Source of the DNA: Candidatus Omnitrophota bacterium
Lineage (GTDB): Bacteria > Omnitrophota > Gorgyraeia > Duberdicusellales > 4484-171
Assembly (NCBI GenBank): GCA_021735655.1
Contig: JAIPGM010000007.1
Coordinates: 6,125-70,124 of the forward strand
DNA: 64,000 nt
Direction of reading: 5' to 3'
A program made the position numbers and the translations under genes. Shown piece after piece: positions 2,264 to 62,976 of this stretch (position 1 is the stretch's first letter; every line of letters starts with the position of its first letter). The notes below the pieces were generated by a model that was not told the DNA's origin, made no database searches, and worked only from the letters and a program-made list of their open reading frames with translations.

Positions 2264-3523
2264 TTACCTCTTACTATAATATTTAGCTAATATTTCAGAA
2301 ACTGGTTTACGCATTACTCGCTCGTCAACTACTTCTTGATTTTGTAATTTTTTTCTTAATTCTTTTCCGGAAATTAAAATCTGTTTATATCCTTTACCTT
2401 TAGACTCTTCAACTAAACCAACTCGACCTAACTCTTGAAAGTAAGCAGCAAATCCAACCTTAATCGGCTCTATTATCAGTGCTCCGTTTAGGTTGGAGAA
2501 TTTCTCTTGGGCGTCGAAATCACCCCAAGCCGGAGCTCCATCATCGAAAGGAGCGTCAGCGTGCTTGCGACCAATAATAATATTACTAAAGCCATAGTTC
2601 TGACGATAGATAGCATGCATTATTGCTTCTTTTGGTCCGGCATAAAACATCTTCATATCCAGACCAATCAGCATAAGTTGCTGACCTAAATCATAACCCT
2701 TGCTCTTCCAAAGTTCTGAATCCTTATCACCCTGGCCTAGAAGTTTATTCTCGATTAAAACCTCATAAGTTTTCATTCTTATGTCCGCTGGAACATCATC
2801 AGATTTAGTAGCGCCAACCAAAGGATTCAAAACAACTCCGGTAAAAAACCCTTCTCGAGTAAGTTCCTCAGCTCCGTGGACCAAGGCATATTCGTGAGCC
2901 CGGTGTAAAGCATTCCTGGTTTGAAAAGCAACTATTTTTTGCCAGCCCTTCTTTTTAAATATTTCTCTGGTTTCAGAAGGAGTAAGCATGTATTTTCCAT
3001 ATTCAGGATGTAATTTCTGAGGTAAGGCTAAAATCTTGCCGCCTAAAAGATAATCACGCTGATCATCGCTAAATATACGCGGACCAGGATGATCAATGCG
3101 TTCAGTTCCATATACTGACTTATTGTAAGCGGTTTTGTCAAAAGGATAAATATCAGATATCTCTAGAGACCCAATTATTTCCTGAGACTCATTCCTAACT
3201 ACTACTGTCTCACCAACTTCTAAATTATCAGCCTCGGACTTAGATATTGCAAAAGCTAAAGGTATAGTCCAGGCATAAGGCTTACCATTTCTTTCTATAT
3301 ATTCATCAGCTAAAACTTTATTGAACTCAAGCCTAGCCATCGGACCTTCAAGCGGAGATAGACCACCGTCAGCAATTCGATAAAATATTGATAAATCAGC
3401 ATTAGAAATATTATAAACTTTTAATCTAGATATCTTATCGAGAAAAACTTCTCTCTCTAATTTAGGAATAAATCGATCAATTAAGCCGCAACCACCATGA
3501 GCTAAAATACTATTGCCATCCAT
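2264..3523 (-). CDS. sat: sulfate adenylyltransferase (ATP sulfurylase)
   Basis: QTRNALHRAHE motif and ATP-sulfurylase fold length. Start moved to the internal ATG (MDGNSIL...), which is preceded by a GAGGGGG SD. Confidence 0.9.
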   Translation of the reverse strand: MDGNSILAHGGCGLIDRFIPKLEREVFLDKISRLKVYNISNADLSIFYRIADGGLSPLEGPMARLEFNKVLADEYIERNGKPYAWTIPLAFAISKSEADNLEVGETVVVRNESQEIIGSLEISDIYPFDKTAYNKSVYGTERIDHPGPRIFSDDQRDYLLGGKILALPQKLHPEYGKYMLTPSETREIFKKKGWQKIVAFQTRNALHRAHEYALVHGAEELTREGFFTGVVLNPLVGATKSDDVPADIRMKTYEVLIENKLLGQGDKDSELWKSKGYDLGQQLMLIGLDMKMFYAGPKEAIMHAIYRQNYGFSNIIIGRKHADAPFDDGAPAWGDFDAQEKFSNLNGALIIEPIKVGFAAYFQELGRVGLVEESKGKGYKQILISGKELRKKLQNQEVVDERVMRKPVSEILAKYYSKR

Positions 3524-3584: not shown

Positions 3585-4313
3585 TTAACTTAAAAATTTA
3601 TTAACTTCTAAATATTTTATTATTTTCTTTGCTGCTTCCTCAGGTGAAATATCTTTGGTGCTAAGAGTAATTTCGGGGTTTTGAGGCGGCTCATAAGGAT
3701 CATCAATACCAGTAAAAAGTTTCAATAATCCCTGCCTTGCTTTTTTATAAAGACCGCGAGGATCTCTCTTTTCACACTCCTCAAGCGGTGTATCAACATA
3801 TACTTCAATAAAATTATTACACATTTTCCTCACAAAACTTCTTGATTCTTGATAAGGTGAAATAAAAGAAGCTATAACAATAACTTTATTTTTCTCAAGC
3901 AAGCTAGCTAATAACCCTACTCGCTTGATATGTCTATCTCTCTCAGACTTAGTAAAACCGATCTTAGGAAATATTGCTCTGATTTTTTCACCGTCTAAGC
4001 GTTCAACATTAAAAGACTTAGCCGTAAGTATCCGATAAAGATTCTCAGCAATGGCTTTTTTCCCTGCGGCAGAAAGTCCGGTTAACCAAATCACACAAGG
4101 AATCGCCTCTCTACGACCAAAAGAAATTTTATCCCAAATTCGTTCATGAAAAAAATAAATCGCCATCTTGCTAACAAATTCCAAAAAACCAACCGTAAAG
4201 GCTAAACTTATTTTTCTTGTAAAAATAAATACAATGATTGATGTGGCTATAGTGCCGGCTGATCTCCAAGTAATAGCCTTAAGTATCGAACGTGCCTTTG
4301 TCTCTCTAAACAT
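3585..4313 (-). CDS. APS kinase paralog with N-terminal ~70-aa hydrophobic (membrane) extension
   Basis: C-terminal 170 aa are a canonical APS kinase (GLSAAGKK P-loop). The N-terminus carries two predicted TM segments. Confidence 0.8.
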   Translation of the reverse strand: MFRETKARSILKAITWRSAGTIATSIIVFIFTRKISLAFTVGFLEFVSKMAIYFFHERIWDKISFGRREAIPCVIWLTGLSAAGKKAIAENLYRILTAKSFNVERLDGEKIRAIFPKIGFTKSERDRHIKRVGLLASLLEKNKVIVIASFISPYQESRSFVRKMCNNFIEVYVDTPLEECEKRDPRGLYKKARQGLLKLFTGIDDPYEPPQNPEITLSTKDISPEEAAKKIIKYLEVNKFLS

Positions 4314-4316
4314 AAG

Positions 4317-5459
4317 TTATTTATTAAAAAACCTTCTAGTTGTTGATATTACATAGTTTATTTGCCGGTCAGTTAGCCAAGGATGGATCGGAAGGCTCAA
4401 AATTCTAGTAGCCATACTTTCGGCAACTTTAAGCTTACCACTTATCTTTACCCTCTTAAAAGCCTTCATCTTATGAAGACAAACCGGATAATAAATTCGT
4501 GAATGTATACCCTTGGAATTCAAGTAGTTAAGAAGTTTATCTCTTTTTGCCGAAATTCTCAAGGTATAAAGATGGTAAACATGTCTACAAGCCTTAGATT
4601 CACTGGGAATTTTAAGCTCTTTAATATCTTTAAAAGCATTGTTATATTTTTGAGCGACACTTCTTCTTAAATCATTAAACTTATTAATATGTTTTAACTT
4701 AGCTAAAAGTACTGCTGCCTGCATTGAATCAAGGCGCGAGTTATAGCCGATATAAGCAGCTCTATACTGGCTAGTTTGACCGTGATTGCGCAAGATAGTT
4801 AAAAAAGAAAACAACTTGCTATCATTAGTTGCAATCAAGCCACCGTCACCAAAAGCACCGAGATTTTTAGAAGGAAAAAAACTAAAAGCTCCACAATCGC
4901 CCAGAGAACCTGCTTGTTTGCCATTAAACTTTGCACCAAAACTTTGAGCCGTATCTTCAACCACAAATAAGCCACGGCTTTTCGCTAATTTTGTAATTTC
5001 GCTCATATTAGCTGCCAAACCATATAAATGCACCGGGATAATACCTACTGTATTCTTATTAATCGCTTTTTTTATTTTTAAAGGATCAATATTGTAACTT
5101 TCCGAATCAATATCAACAAATACCGGCGTGGCCCCTGAGTGTACAATACTTTCAGCAGTAGCAATAAATGTAAAAGGCGTAGTGATAATCTCGTCTTTCT
5201 TATCGAAATGCTCCTTACCTTTTATCTTTAAAGCCAAAGCCTTTAAAGATAAAATTAAAGCATCGGTTCCTGAAGCAACACCAAGGGCATGCTTTGTTCC
5301 TAAATAGTCTTCGGCCTTAGCTTCAAAATCCGAAACTGCCTTGCCTAAAATCCATTGCTGAGACTTAAGGCACTGTTTAATATTCTGATCAATCTCTTTT
5401 TTTAAAAAAGAATACTCTTTCTTTAAGTCTAGGAGTGGTATATTAAAATTTTTCTTCAT
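4317..5459 (-). CDS. DegT/DnrJ/EryC1/StrS-family PLP-dependent sugar aminotransferase
   Basis: 380 aa with conserved aminotransferase class motifs (SGTDAL, PLP-lysine region SFFPSKNLGAFGDGG). Confidence 0.85.
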   Translation of the reverse strand: MKKNFNIPLLDLKKEYSFLKKEIDQNIKQCLKSQQWILGKAVSDFEAKAEDYLGTKHALGVASGTDALILSLKALALKIKGKEHFDKKDEIITTPFTFIATAESIVHSGATPVFVDIDSESYNIDPLKIKKAINKNTVGIIPVHLYGLAANMSEITKLAKSRGLFVVEDTAQSFGAKFNGKQAGSLGDCGAFSFFPSKNLGAFGDGGLIATNDSKLFSFLTILRNHGQTSQYRAAYIGYNSRLDSMQAAVLLAKLKHINKFNDLRRSVAQKYNNAFKDIKELKIPSESKACRHVYHLYTLRISAKRDKLLNYLNSKGIHSRIYYPVCLHKMKAFKRVKISGKLKVAESMATRILSLPIHPWLTDRQINYVISTTRRFFNK

Positions 5460-16302: not shown

Positions 16303-16336
16303 AAAAAAATAACCCCGCGCCTATTGAAGCGCGGGG
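16303..16336 (-). terminator. rho-independent terminator (8-bp GC stem CCCCGCGC/GCGCGGGG, 8-nt loop, then TTATTTTTTT on the minus strand)
   Basis: Perfect GC-rich inverted repeat at 16313-16320/16329-16336 followed on the minus strand by a U-run, 68 nt downstream of the small Lys-rich ORF stop. Confidence 0.65.
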
Positions 16337-16403
16337 TCGAAATTTCATCGATGTTTTTATTCGTAAGAAGTTAAACAAAGGTTCTATTACCTTCGTCTAT
16401 CAC

Positions 16404-16475
16404 TTATTTCTTTTTTTTCTTTGCTGCTTTTTTCTTTGCAGGTTTTTTCTTCTTTGCTGCTTTCTTCTTTGCCAT
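16404..16475 (-). CDS. 23-aa lysine-rich peptide MAKKKAAKKKKPAKKKAAKKKKK (histone-H1-tail-like basic peptide; function unknown)
   Basis: ATG at 16473-16475 is preceded at optimal spacing by a strong SD AGGGGGGTG and an upstream TTGACA-17-TAAATT promoter, and is followed by an intrinsic terminator. Below the ORF-track size cutoff. Confidence 0.45.
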   Translation of the reverse strand: MAKKKAAKKKKPAKKKAAKKKKK

Positions 16476-32527: not shown

Positions 32528-33373
32528 TTACCGGGAAACACGAAAAACAGCGTCGAGAGCATCTTTGAGCCTCTCACCTGCAGACAAATAATCATTATTC
32601 TTTATATACTCTAAAGCACTCTTGGTGTTATTTAAAGCTTCCTGTTCTAAATAAAGCCTCTCTGCTTGTTGATAAAGCTTACGAGCGTGCTCTTTTAACT
32701 CTTGATCAGGAGGATTCAAGGCAAGAACTGTCTTAAATTCTCCTAGGGCCACTTCGGCATTGCCTTCTTTTAAAGCTCGATTACCAATATCAAAGTGAAG
32801 TTTTGCTTCCTCAGTAAGCATCAAGCGTTCCTGCTCACGCTTATAGATAAACTCTCTCGATAGACGGGCAGCTTTTTCTTCTAATAGCTCCTTACGTACC
32901 TCAGGATAAGTTCCTAACTTAAGTAAGTGCTGTCGGGAAACTTCCCACCAATAGTCGCCTTGCTGACCTAAGGTATATCTTTTCTTCCAATAAGTAGTAG
33001 CATTCCTTATATCGCCTTTTTTCTCATAAAGAAATGCTAAATTAGTATAAGCCGCTAAGTAGCTCGGATCAATCTTCAATACTTCCTTATAAGCTAGTAG
33101 AGCCTGATCTTCTTCGCCGATAGCCTCATAAATTACACCCAGGTCATTTTGAACCTCAGCATAATGAGGATCCATCTGAGCAGCCTTCTGATAATACATA
33201 AGCGCCGACTTTAAATCCCCCATCGACTGTAACCGATAGCCCTCTTCTCGATAATTACGGGCCTCTTGGTTAAGCGCACCAATTTTATCAAGATTCTCGG
33301 CCTGGGAAGTAAATAAAGGGAAGAGTAATAAAAGAGTGACTAGAAAAATCTTCATCAGTTTTAACTTTAACAT
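32528..33373 (-). CDS. secreted tetratricopeptide-repeat protein
   Basis: Signal peptide plus multiple TPR-like repeats. Confidence 0.65.
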   Translation of the reverse strand: MLKLKLMKIFLVTLLLLFPLFTSQAENLDKIGALNQEARNYREEGYRLQSMGDLKSALMYYQKAAQMDPHYAEVQNDLGVIYEAIGEEDQALLAYKEVLKIDPSYLAAYTNLAFLYEKKGDIRNATTYWKKRYTLGQQGDYWWEVSRQHLLKLGTYPEVRKELLEEKAARLSREFIYKREQERLMLTEEAKLHFDIGNRALKEGNAEVALGEFKTVLALNPPDQELKEHARKLYQQAERLYLEQEALNNTKSALEYIKNNDYLSAGERLKDALDAVFRVSR

Positions 33374-61332: not shown

Positions 61333-61741
61333 TATTAACCTCCCGGCAGTTTTTACATGTACCATAGAAGTAACCCTGAAGCTCTTCGATGATATTACCG
61401 TCAACTTCTCGTTGTTCAAGAGCCTTGCAAGGCTTCATATTAAGATCCGAAATTTCATCACAGCTCTTACATAAAAAATGATGGTGGGGGTCAATTCTAG
61501 CTTCAAAGCAAGACTTATCAAACTGTATTCTTATCTCATTAATTACGTGCTTCTGCTTAAAAAGATCCAAAACCGTATAAACAGTAGCCAAAGATACTGC
61601 TGGCATTCTAAGCTTAACTCTCTCGTAAATCTGATCAGCAGTTAAATGCTTACCATTATTTAAAAGAACTCCATGGACCTCTAACCTCTGCTGAGTTGGC
61701 CTTATATCATGACCCCTTAATACCTTAAGACTGTTTTCCAT
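61322..61741 (-). CDS. Fur-family metalloregulator (PerR-like by context)
   Basis: N-terminal HTH region, HHHF.C..C metal-site motifs, C-terminal CxxC; heads the oxidative-stress cluster. Confidence 0.85.
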   Translation of the reverse strand: MENSLKVLRGHDIRPTQQRLEVHGVLLNNGKHLTADQIYERVKLRMPAVSLATVYTVLDLFKQKHVINEIRIQFDKSCFEARIDPHHHFLCKSCDEISDLNMKPCKALEQREVDGNIIEELQGYFYGTCKNCREVNNGK

Positions 61742-61750
61742 ATTAATCGA

Positions 61751-61779
61751 CTATACAACTTTTTCTCCTTATTGTCAAG
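61751..61779 (-). promoter_or_regulatory. sigma70-like promoter for the fur-family gene (TTGACA, 17 nt, TATAGT); implies a near-leaderless mRNA
   Basis: Minus-strand TTGACA (plus 61774-61779) and TATAGT (plus 61751-61756); the ATG lies only about 9 nt after the -10 element. Confidence 0.5.
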
Positions 61780-61794
61780 AATTATTTTTGATTA

Positions 61795-61807
61795 ATAATG
61801 ATTATTG
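61795..61807. promoter_or_regulatory. Fur/PerR-box-like perfect palindrome AATAATGATTATT
   Basis: 13-bp 6-1-6 perfect inverted repeat about 55 nt upstream of the fur-family ATG; resembles the PerR box TTATAATnATTATAA and the Fur box core. Confidence 0.5.
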
Positions 61808-61928
61808 TTAAAAGTCATAACCCTCTTTCCTCCATAAGGTTCTAGTCCAACTCATTAATCGGGTTAAAAAATGGGCATGAAAACAAGCTAAAAAATAATA
61901 GCGTTTTCAGATCAAAAGAAAAATACCC

Positions 61929-61958
61929 TTGAAAGGAAAGCTAAAACCATGTTATATT
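61929..61958 (+). promoter_or_regulatory. promoter module A (TTGAAA, 18 nt, extended -10 TGtTATATT), plus strand
   Basis: Part of a roughly 44-nt block repeated in inverted orientation at 62517-62545. Confidence 0.55.
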
Positions 61959-61964
61959 TATATG

Positions 61965-62067
61965 AAATAAGGGTAGCATAACAACTTAAACTAAAAAAGA
62001 GAGGGACTTCCGTTAAGGAAGAGGCTTCAAGAATAATCTTGTAAGCAGAAACCCCTCTCTTTTTTTA
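61965..62067 (+). ncRNA. candidate ~100-nt small structured RNA (orphan; promoter A to intrinsic terminator)
   Basis: No ORF. Short leader, then a multi-branch structure (outer stem AGAGAGGG/CCCTCTCT enclosing hairpins CTTCC-GTTAA-GGAAG and GCTTCAAGA-ATAAT-CTTGTAAGC) followed by T7. Confidence 0.4.
61993..62067. terminator. bidirectional rho-independent terminator (A6-stem...stem-T7)
   Basis: AAAAAAGAGAGGG...CCCTCTCTTTTTTT works on both strands, ending the plus-strand sRNA and the minus-strand pilZ transcript. Confidence 0.6.
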
Positions 62068-62123
62068 TAGAATTTTTAAACTATCTTTAAGCTGAAACGA
62101 TTGAAAAGGTTGGGTTTTTAAGG

Positions 62124-62453
62124 CTAAGTTGCAAAAACTTTCCCTAAAAAATGGGAAAGCGACTTCTTGCCTTTCTCATTTAACTCAATGAATTGAAGAC
62201 CAGCTGAATAACGATCAGCCATCCTATCTTTATTGCACCAAACAAGTTTGGCCTTTAAGTCGACCACTGCATCAACAAGGTTAACATGTAATTTTAAAAG
62301 ACTATCTCTAGGAATAAAGGTATTGCTTACTATCTTTACTCCAACCATACTTAGATCCTTGCAAACGGTATAAAAATACTTCTGAGAAGGAAGAGTTTTG
62401 CACTCAACCGGGAAAGATATTCCTACTCTGGGGTTATTTCTTCTTTCTTGCAT
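62124..62453 (-). CDS. single-domain PilZ protein (c-di-GMP receptor-like)
   Basis: RRNNPR (RxxxR) and DLSMVG (DxSxxG) motifs, 109 aa. Confidence 0.7.
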   Translation of the reverse strand: MQERRNNPRVGISFPVECKTLPSQKYFYTVCKDLSMVGVKIVSNTFIPRDSLLKLHVNLVDAVVDLKAKLVWCNKDRMADRYSAGLQFIELNEKGKKSLSHFLGKVFAT

Positions 62454-62464
62454 AATTGTCGGTT

Positions 62465-62510
62465 AAAAAAGAGTCCGAACCCGTGGCTTTAGAGACACAA
62501 GTTCGGATTT
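62465..62510 (-). promoter_or_regulatory. promoter-proximal hairpin plus U6 tract in the pilZ 5' leader (attenuator/terminator-like)
   Basis: Minus-strand RNA forms UCCGAAC-(20-nt loop)-GUUCGGA then CUC-UUUUUU, ending 11 nt before the pilZ ATG; no SD in between. Confidence 0.45.
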
Positions 62511-62516
62511 CATATA

Positions 62517-62545
62517 AATATAACATAATTTTTCTTACTTTTCAA
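62517..62545 (-). promoter_or_regulatory. promoter module B (TTGAAA, 17 nt, extended -10 TGtTATATT), minus strand
   Basis: Inverted copy of module A, including an identical 20-nt core ATGTTATATTTATATGAAAT. Confidence 0.55.
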
Positions 62546-62635
62546 GGTAAATAGGCAATATTTCTGAATTTTTTTCTCTTCTCTAACCGTCTGGCTGGTA
62601 AAAGGTAGGGGCATTTTGAAAATATAAAAAATACG

Positions 62636-62710
62636 TGGCTGCCCGGCTAGGACTCGAACCTAGGAAACAAGAACCAGAATCTTGCGTGTTGCCAATTACA
62701 CTACCGGGCA
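62636..62710 (-). tRNA. tRNA-Gln (anticodon CUG)
   Basis: Hand-folded: acceptor TGCCCGG/CCGGGCA (U1-A72, G73 as in bacterial tRNA-Gln), anticodon stem CAAGA/TCTTG with loop TTCTGGT, T-arm CTAGG-TTCGAGT-CCTAG, encoded CCA. G37 is atypical. Confidence 0.75.
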
Positions 62711-62718
62711 AAAAAATA

Positions 62719-62976
62719 CTATACCATCTTTAGGGCGCTAGCTAAAGCCTCTTTCAGGCGCGTTATCCCTTGGGCATCAAACTCAAAATGACGTGTTTCA
62801 CCACCAATTAAAGTGGTACTTTCTCTTATGACTACCCTCTTTTTACCGTGTTTTTCAATCAATAAAACATCGTACTTAAACTTAGCTATGCCTTTACGTC
62901 GCTCACTGACTAAGCCAAAATTTTTAATTACACTTTCCGGTGCAATAGCTGGTTTCGATTTTTTAAAAAAATTCAT
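62719..62976 (-). CDS. hypothetical protein (85 aa)
   Basis: ORF ends 9 nt before tRNA-Gln; no recognisable motif. Confidence 0.45.
   Translation of the reverse strand: MNFFKKSKPAIAPESVIKNFGLVSERRKGIAKFKYDVLLIEKHGKKRVVIRESTTLIGGETRHFEFDAQGITRLKEALASALKMV

Follow-up and report, generated by a model that had tools for sequence, protein, structure and literature searches.

Several described systems resemble the surroundings of the pilZ gene considered here. Type I toxin-antitoxin (TA) modules place a small gene near an oppositely oriented short RNA. Small RNA (sRNA) genes that share a bidirectional terminator have their own promoter and yield a short, structured, non-coding transcript with a U-tail, convergent to a protein gene. 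Leader attenuators and RNAs derived from 5′ untranslated regions contain a hairpin and U-tract between promoter and start codon that are conserved with the gene, and the cyclic di-GMP (c-di-GMP) riboswitches GEMM-I and c-di-GMP-II are conserved 5′-leader RNA elements of genes in the c-di-GMP network. We found no described regulatory RNAs of Omnitrophota in Rfam or the searchable literature, and we know of no experimental study of promoter specificity in this phylum. The pilZ gene lies in a 64,000-nt stretch, hereafter the window, from a Candidatus Omnitrophota bacterium (GCA_021735655.1, contig JAIPGM010000007.1, positions 6,125-70,124), between a plus-strand promoter (P1) and a minus-strand promoter (P2). 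We consider it probable that the locus consists of two conserved convergent units, one in which P1 drives a small RNA and one in which P2 drives a leader followed by pilZ, and that the two promoters have been locally homogenized. New here are two previously undescribed, conserved predicted RNA elements flanking pilZ, together with an apparently lineage-specific homogenization of promoters.

For comparison, we used contigs carrying PilZ homologs with 50-81% identity to the window PilZ, which come from Candidatus Omnitrophota metagenome-assembled genomes. The window is called W in lineage lists and the related loci L007, L011, L015, and so on; L007 comes from sample ERZ24794656 and L011 from JGI 3300009314. 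The leader comparison covers eight lineages (W, L007, L011, L015, L017, L019, L022, and L025). The small-RNA comparison covers five (W, L007, L011, L017/L023, and L022/L024); PilZ in these relatives is 66-81% identical, and the covariation set holds six sequences, of which 5-6 are independent. R1 and R2 denote covariance models of the small RNA and the pilZ leader, respectively. Sequences, conservation, structures, covariation, and synteny were all established by computation, whereas the activity of P1 and P2 as promoters, termination by the leader hairpin, gene conversion, and any regulatory role that the small RNA may have are inferred from them.

The original prediction described two near-identical, inverted promoter-like blocks around pilZ, with no other copy in the 64 kb, and this description holds. 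The 20-mer ATGTTATATTTATATGAAAT occurs exactly twice in the window, in inverted orientation (Table 1); the predicted position of the minus-strand copy was off by one base. Even at three mismatches there is no third match, with 0.03 expected by chance, and none of 100 shuffled sequences gave two matches. The inverted repeat widens to 26 nt at 92% identity (61943-61968/62507-62532), and CCTTGAAA is also duplicated (61927-61934/62540-62547). A search for exact ATGTTATATTTATATGAAAT in 185,579 species genomes, a set from which the source genome is absent, returned six chance matches in unrelated taxa, none of them in a homologous context; the block is therefore not a common repeat, and we rejected a genome-wide repeat family.

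Both blocks have the consensus-like -35 and extended -10 elements that had been predicted. A consensus scan matched TTGAAA-18-TATATT with TG at 61929-61958 (+) and TTGAAA-17-TATATT with TG at 62545-62517 (-), each agreeing with the sigma-70 -35/-10 consensus (TTGACA, TATAAT) at 10 of 12 positions. By sequence, both sites thus have the hexamers, the 16-18 nt spacer, and the TG-T-TATATT of a sigma-70-type extended -10 promoter. The predicted start is G61964 or A61965 for P1 and G62511 or A62510 for P2. Orthologous P1 sites, TTGAAA/TTGCAA-18-TGTTACATT, are present in L007, L011, L017, L022, and L023; orthologous P2 sites, TTGAAA-17-TGTTATATT or a near variant, are present in L007, L011, L015, L017, L019, L022, and L025. 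Nearly all of these sites contain TATG or CATG, resembling TRTG, the -16 region of Gram-positive-type promoters. P1 and P2 resemble sigma-70/SigA promoters of the TRTG-n-TATAAT type in their TTGAAA, 17-18 nt spacer, (T/C)ATG-T-TATATT, and purine 6-7 nt downstream; they differ in being identical to each other for 10 nt past the -10, beyond any promoter consensus. A TTGAC(A/G) -35, a 17-nt spacer, and a TGTTA-type extended -10 (form TTGACA-17-TGTTAAnnT) are found together at three further intergenic positions in the window, so the -35 hexamer with ATGTTA appears to be the ordinary strong-promoter consensus here. Strong housekeeping-type promoters with a TRTG/extended -10 would account for the likeness in CCTTGAAA and ATGTTAYATT.

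The leader that P2 would transcribe has the same layout in all eight lineages: (C)CTTGAAA, 14 A/T-rich nt, a TGTTATATT-like element, 10-24 nt, a hairpin CCGAACUUGU..GCCACGGGUUCGG, a U-tract, 10-32 nt, and the ATG. It is kept down to 59% PilZ identity. In the window, the hairpin begins right after ATGTTATATTTATATGAAAT, has 15 bp, and folds with a free energy (ΔG) of -21.2 kcal/mol (z -3.4). R2 scores 62.9 bits at this leader and finds one copy per locus, with no further copy in the 64 kb. The 14-nt 3′ arm of the hairpin, AGCCACGGGTTCGG, is invariant across the lineages, as are its tandem U.G pairs, which on the other strand would give A.C mismatches; the hairpin therefore appears to act in the pilZ-sense RNA. 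Since the gene upstream differs between lineages (tRNA-Gln, a TPR protein, an OmpA/LysM protein, dCMP deaminase, or, in L019, a divergent gene), the leader element seems to belong to pilZ. The stem is followed by at least six U in every lineage, and in the window its 15-bp hairpin and U6 have the sequence of an intrinsic terminator.

A transcript from P2 would form this hairpin ~5 nt from its start and meet a promoter-proximal intrinsic terminator or attenuator at ~47 nt. PilZ would be made only by read-through, and otherwise an RNA of ~47 nt would be released. Unlike known leader attenuators, the pilZ leader, with ~5 nt ahead of the hairpin, is too short for an antiterminator, a leader peptide, or a ligand pocket, and its termination is a prediction. 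Because no competing fold fits into it, modulation of any kind would have to act in trans on the hairpin, and the invariant arm suggests sequence-specific recognition. The leader also differs from the c-di-GMP riboswitches in being a single hairpin of ~35 nt, far smaller than either aptamer; the GEMM-I and c-di-GMP-II models gave no match at E up to 10 across 61700-62800. A search of viral contigs with the leader 13-mer gave 11 matches, none confirmed by R2. A 19-bit R2 match at 16304-16345 (-) was discarded as an ordinary terminator after a tiny Lys-rich open reading frame (ORF).

P1 leads into a region that folds, over the conserved core of the predicted small RNA and its T7 (Table 1), into a three-helix structure with ΔG -32.9 kcal/mol (z -4.6). 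The core consists of an outer stem GAGAGGG/CCCUCUC, a hairpin CUUCC-loop-GGAAG, a hairpin GCUUCAAGA..UCUUGUAAGC, a junction CAGAAA, and a U7 tail. The R1 score at this site is 86.7 bits, and the model detects a single copy at each locus, with no additional one in the rest of the window. In relatives, the unit reads TTGAAA/TTGCAA, a 15-nt spacer stretch, TGTTACATT, a tail of 6-35 nt, the core, and T6-7, and the core follows the pattern GAGAGGGGCUUCC-loop-GGAAG(A/G)GGCUCCAAG..CUUGnGAGCAGAAACCCCUCUC across lineages; the RNA would be ~75-105 nt long. It is convergent to pilZ in all five lineages. A further metagenome scan, whose pattern was the RNA core alone and made no use of pilZ, found three loci, each with the RNA beside a convergent pilZ ortholog. 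The consensus fold of the six sequences has 28 pairs, with 97% of cells paired compared to 44-67% in slid controls; five pairs show compensatory changes on both sides, and the covariation score exceeds that of all 500 shuffles.

The 5′ tail is dispensable, being only 6 nt in L007. Since a start codon ahead of the core is not conserved (AUG in L017 and L022, GUG in L007, none in W and L011), the RNA core is evidently non-coding. These features point to an independently transcribed, structured, non-coding RNA that is previously undescribed. With Rfam 15, at the gathering threshold and at E up to 10, only tRNAs passed in the window, the other matches being microRNA models far below threshold; seven related loci, searched at E up to 1, gave only tRNAs and noise. 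A motif scan of viral contigs gave zero matches, and a literature search on the small RNA and the leader element found nothing. Compared to known sRNA genes, the locus differs in having no Rfam match, in that its paired stems and short CAGAAA junction are the most conserved parts, leaving no obvious single-stranded seed, and in its dispensable 5′ tail and lack of detected conserved target pairing. The outer stem and U7, a G+C-rich stem followed by a U-tract, are the predicted intrinsic terminator, and P1 would thereby yield an RNA of ~103 nt ending at its own terminator. The same stem would end pilZ from the other side and is likely a bidirectional terminator in this genome. A simple terminator scanner missed both the small-RNA and the leader hairpins, whose loops and inserts exceed its limits.

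These results agree with the predictions that one promoter leads into a non-coding structured region with a hairpin and U-tract and that the other fires into pilZ, although in each case transcription itself is a deduction from conserved sites. The hairpins and U-tracts said to lie 10-40 nt after each block are there, but the spacing is wrong at P2, where the hairpin directly follows the 20-mer. The strong conservation of the leader hairpin, and the doubling of the RNA stem as the likely pilZ 3′ terminator, had been overlooked.

How P1 and P2 came to be so alike is best judged from the relatives. The spacer is constant across lineages, at 18 nt in P1 and 17 nt in P2, and P1/P2 similarity in the relatives is limited to the -35 hexamer and ATGTTAYATT. 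Over the 10 nt that follow the -10, P1 and P2 of the same genome agree at 10 of 10 positions here but at only 5, 1, 4, and 1 in L007, L011, L017, and L022. Every other P1 site reads TGTTACATT, and P2 sites mostly read TGTTATATT; in this genome, P1 has the P2-type T and P2 has the P1-type TATAT. Among the genomes compared, the 20-base identity is found in this one only. The constant, separate spacers and the poor match after the -10 in relatives therefore suggest that the promoters are old and independent and were homogenized locally. The homogenized tract would be ~20-26 nt, and its simplest cause would be short-tract gene conversion, the two inverted copies lying 540 nt apart; the core promoter and the first transcribed bases would then be the same for both RNAs. 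A duplicated regulatory cassette finds no support in the same data, since the relatives' P1 and P2 share only TTGAAA and ATGTTAYATT, with 1-5 matches in the 10 nt after the -10. We also rejected an ancient duplication of the whole unit: R1 has no match to the leader and R2 none to the small RNA.

Table 1. Coordinates of the features around pilZ (positions in the window)
Feature	Position	Strand	Details
20-nt core, copy 1	61949..61968	+	ATGTTATATTTATATGAAAT; spans ~-16 to ~+5 of P1
20-nt core, copy 2	62507..62526	-	ATGTTATATTTATATGAAAT
P1, small-RNA promoter (predicted)	61927..61958	+	CCTTGAAA; -35 TTGAAA 61929-61934; 18-nt spacer; extended -10 TGTTATATT 61950-61958
P2, pilZ promoter (predicted)	62517..62547	-	CCTTGAAA; -35 62545-62540; 17-nt A/T-rich spacer; extended -10 TGTTATATT 62525-62517
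Small non-coding RNA, ~103 nt (predicted)	61964..62066	+	variable 5′ tail 61964-61992; conserved core 61993-62066
pilZ 5′ leader	62465..62511	-	GAAAU; hairpin 62506-62475 (CCGAACUUGUG..CACGGGUUCGG); U-tract 62470-62465; ATG 11 nt on
pilZ	62124..62453	-	109 aa; single PilZ domain; RxxxR (R5..R9); DxSxxG (D33, S35, G38)
pilZ 3′ terminator (likely)	61993..62065	-	same stem on the pilZ strand, then T6 61998-61993

Several points weigh against two convergent units with homogenized promoters. L015, L019, and L025 have the leader and pilZ with no R1-type RNA nearby, so linkage between the two units is not obligatory. Compensatory changes are nearly absent from the leader hairpin, whose fold rests on conservation and energy. 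Covariation in the small RNA is modest given the number of independent sequences, with the outer stem and most of helix 2 invariant. A hairpin at the 5′ end could stabilize an mRNA rather than terminate it, and an identity that spans the start sites could reflect a shared operator instead of gene conversion.

Such a stabilizing role is the chief rival to termination at the leader. The hairpin would then be a 5′-terminal mRNA stabilizer or a translation element, not a terminator, which we regard as a real if somewhat doubtful possibility. The ompA and aprE leaders are known 5′ stabilizers, and the pilZ hairpin has the same kind of geometry, lying ~5 nt from the predicted 5′ end in six of eight lineages; moreover, U/A-rich sequence ahead of a start codon can enhance translation. 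However, a G+C-rich stem base is followed by at least six U in eight of eight lineages, and an invariant 14-nt 3′ arm exceeds the needs of a generic protective hairpin.

The small RNA might instead be tied functionally to the adjacent oxidative/nitrosative-stress cluster (a PerR-like regulator, flavin reductase, hybrid-cluster protein (Hcp), NifU, and rubrerythrin), with pilZ a mere neighbor. We treat this as a tentative and rather unlikely explanation. Wherever the RNA is found, pilZ adjoins the cluster, represented by fur in W, L007, L011, and L022 and by nifU-rubrerythrin in L017/L023; the three lineages with leader and pilZ elsewhere have no RNA. Nevertheless, P1 has no Fur/PerR-type box, the RNA remains beside pilZ in L017, where fur, the reductase, and hcp are absent, and the sample is small, with pilZ at every locus. 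At the small-RNA position in L025, convergent to pilZ, we noted a unit at 2950-3080 (-) with TTGAAA-17-TATACT, ~70 nt, and a strong terminator. Its likeness to the RNA core is confined to GGAAGAGGC and that to the leader arm to AGCCACGG; the unit may be a diverged or replaced counterpart of the small RNA.

If ATGTTATATTTATATGAAAT were a regulator's operator covering the -10 and start of both promoters, the small RNA and pilZ would be co-repressed or co-activated. The identity does reach 10 nt past what sigma needs, the 64 kb holds only these two sites, and a tandem TTATAT-TTATAT is present. We nonetheless think a shared operator unlikely: the 10 nt after the -10 differ between P1 and P2 in every relative, ATGTTATATTTATATGAAAT has no dyad symmetry, and the only clear palindrome nearby, AATAATGATTATT (61794-61806), lies ~120 nt away and does not resemble it. 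No Fur/PerR 7-1-7 box is present at P1 or P2 within two mismatches. A Fur/PerR operator on the promoters was rejected, as the perfect AATAATGATTATT of this locus is found only at 61794-61806, before the Fur-family gene.

It is improbable that the structure downstream of P1 is just an elaborate bidirectional terminator between genes, with P1 a promoter-like sequence that has no dedicated RNA. Such a reading could point to the T6 that follows the same stem on the pilZ strand here, to the lack of any other terminator for pilZ, and to the 21-32 bits that the reverse strand still scores with R1. Yet all five lineages preserve an intact P1 (-35, 18-nt spacer, TRTG-n-TACATT) amid diverging surroundings. 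The U tail on the RNA strand, T6-7, is universal, whereas L007 and L011 have only a poor tail on the pilZ strand. In addition, the two internal hairpins and CAGAAA are conserved, with compensatory changes, and a terminator needs neither; G.U cells number six for the plus-strand reading versus one for the other strand.

Our preferred reading of two convergent units can be extended to a self-contained RNA-based control circuit, P2-leader-pilZ-sRNA-P1, although we consider the extension quite improbable. A trans factor would bind the invariant AGCCACGGGUUCGG arm of the terminator and gate read-through into pilZ, the convergent three-helix RNA would serve that factor as another ligand or as a decoy, and the promoters homogenized in this lineage would deliver both RNAs in strict proportion. 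The factor could be a protein, and conceivably PilZ or a partner acting in a c-di-GMP-dependent manner.

A type I TA module or cis-antisense pair, in which the plus-strand RNA would repress pilZ or a hidden toxin by pairing, is very improbable: the layout is convergent and a short structured RNA does lie beside a small gene, but a conserved small hydrophobic ORF is lacking, the core of the RNA does not code for protein, and the RNA stops 57 nt short of the pilZ stop codon (62066 vs 62124), leaving no antisense overlap with the coding sequence. Moreover, the protein is a canonical 109-aa PilZ c-di-GMP receptor, and the best duplexes between sRNA and leader do not surpass those of shuffled RNAs and fall at sites that differ by lineage. 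No hydrophobic toxin ORF of <60 aa was found across 61700-62700, where pilZ is the only conserved ORF, and the genes called beside the unit in relatives encode PilZ and Fur/NifU, with no toxin. Windowed duplexes of the small RNA with the pilZ leader and 5′ coding sequence had energies within the shuffle range and no conserved sites; whole-length RNA-leader duplexes are uninformative on pairing. The likeness to type I TA modules that had been proposed thus falls for want of a small toxin ORF and of RNA overlap with the pilZ coding sequence, and the proposed sRNA/target module for want of conserved small RNA-leader pairing.

The significance of the locus is modest, since the sRNA, the attenuator, and the extended -10 promoter are all well-known kinds of element. 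For Omnitrophota, an uncultivated phylum, it offers two conserved candidates, a three-helix RNA and a near-invariant hairpin-terminator leader, both open to direct testing with metatranscriptomes already available. In addition, it illustrates neatly, on a small scale, how two inverted promoters under functional constraint seem to have turned identical over ~20 nt in one lineage.

The pilZ product matches Pfam PF07238 (E 6.7e-13, 49.3 bits vs a cut-off of 22.5). R5, R9, D33, S35, and G38 are invariant in an alignment of eight PilZ orthologs; by these motifs, the protein is a canonical c-di-GMP receptor, for which ligand binding is predicted. The exact protein has no database record; among the nearest relatives of this genome is the one whose contig encodes P0010, with 97% identity across the 68% of the query that it covers. 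In L015, the PilZ call in the database (4001-4444, P0005, 147 aa) begins at the -35 TTG and crosses the promoter and hairpin; translation most likely begins at the ATG at ~4106, giving ~112 aa like the orthologs. More distant PilZ homologs (L021 and L027-L030; 50-57% identity) lie in a different, conserved block of 3-dehydroquinate (DHQ) synthase, pilZ, a second pilZ, DUF4416, and radical SAM genes, and in three of these five loci a 49-50 aa ORF separates the two pilZ genes. They have neither RNA element, which suggests a separate paralogous PilZ lineage in Omnitrophota. These homologs (≤57% identity) were dropped as not being informative orthologs.

The window has a G+C content of 37%. All of its ORFs of at least 90 aa that look real are on the minus strand, and the plus-strand GC skew is uniformly ~-0.19; on the plus strand, the predicted small RNA would be the sole transcription unit of the 64 kb. 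From high to low coordinates, the minus strand carries an 85-aa ORF, tRNA-Gln(CUG) (62710-62636), P2 and the leader, pilZ (62453-62124), the RNA region, a Fur-family gene (61741-61322) whose product has PerR as its best NCBIfam match, below the cut-off, a FAD/NAD oxidoreductase gene, and the Hcp gene. The gap between tRNA-Gln(CUG) and P2 is 90 nt here (62546-62635) and 430-570 nt in L007 (3344-3908) and L011 (3473-3906), where it holds a called ORF of 50-53 aa with no Pfam match. This segment has apparently been lost here or gained in L007/L011.

Upstream of the Fur-family gene (61741-61778 (-)), a -10 TATAGT ends 8 nt before the ATG, with no Shine-Dalgarno sequence. The spacing is the same in L007 (4632-4671) and L011 (~4612-4651), suggesting that a leaderless mRNA is conserved. 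Immediately before the -35 of this gene, the palindrome at 61794-61806 is a perfect 7-1-7 repeat (AATAAT-N-ATTATT), conserved in L007 and L011, and is likely an autoregulatory Fur/PerR box. A second perfect copy is found at 32587-32599, in or beside an ORF at 32528-33373.

Elsewhere in the window, a 23-codon ORF at 16404-16475 (-) encodes MAKKKAAKKKKPAKKKAAKKKKK and is preceded by a strong Shine-Dalgarno sequence, AGGGGGG. With its own near-consensus promoter at 16560-16532 (-), TTGACA-17-TGTTAAATT, and a clean terminator at ~16339-16305 (-), the unit looks like a stand-alone gene for a tiny, highly basic peptide.

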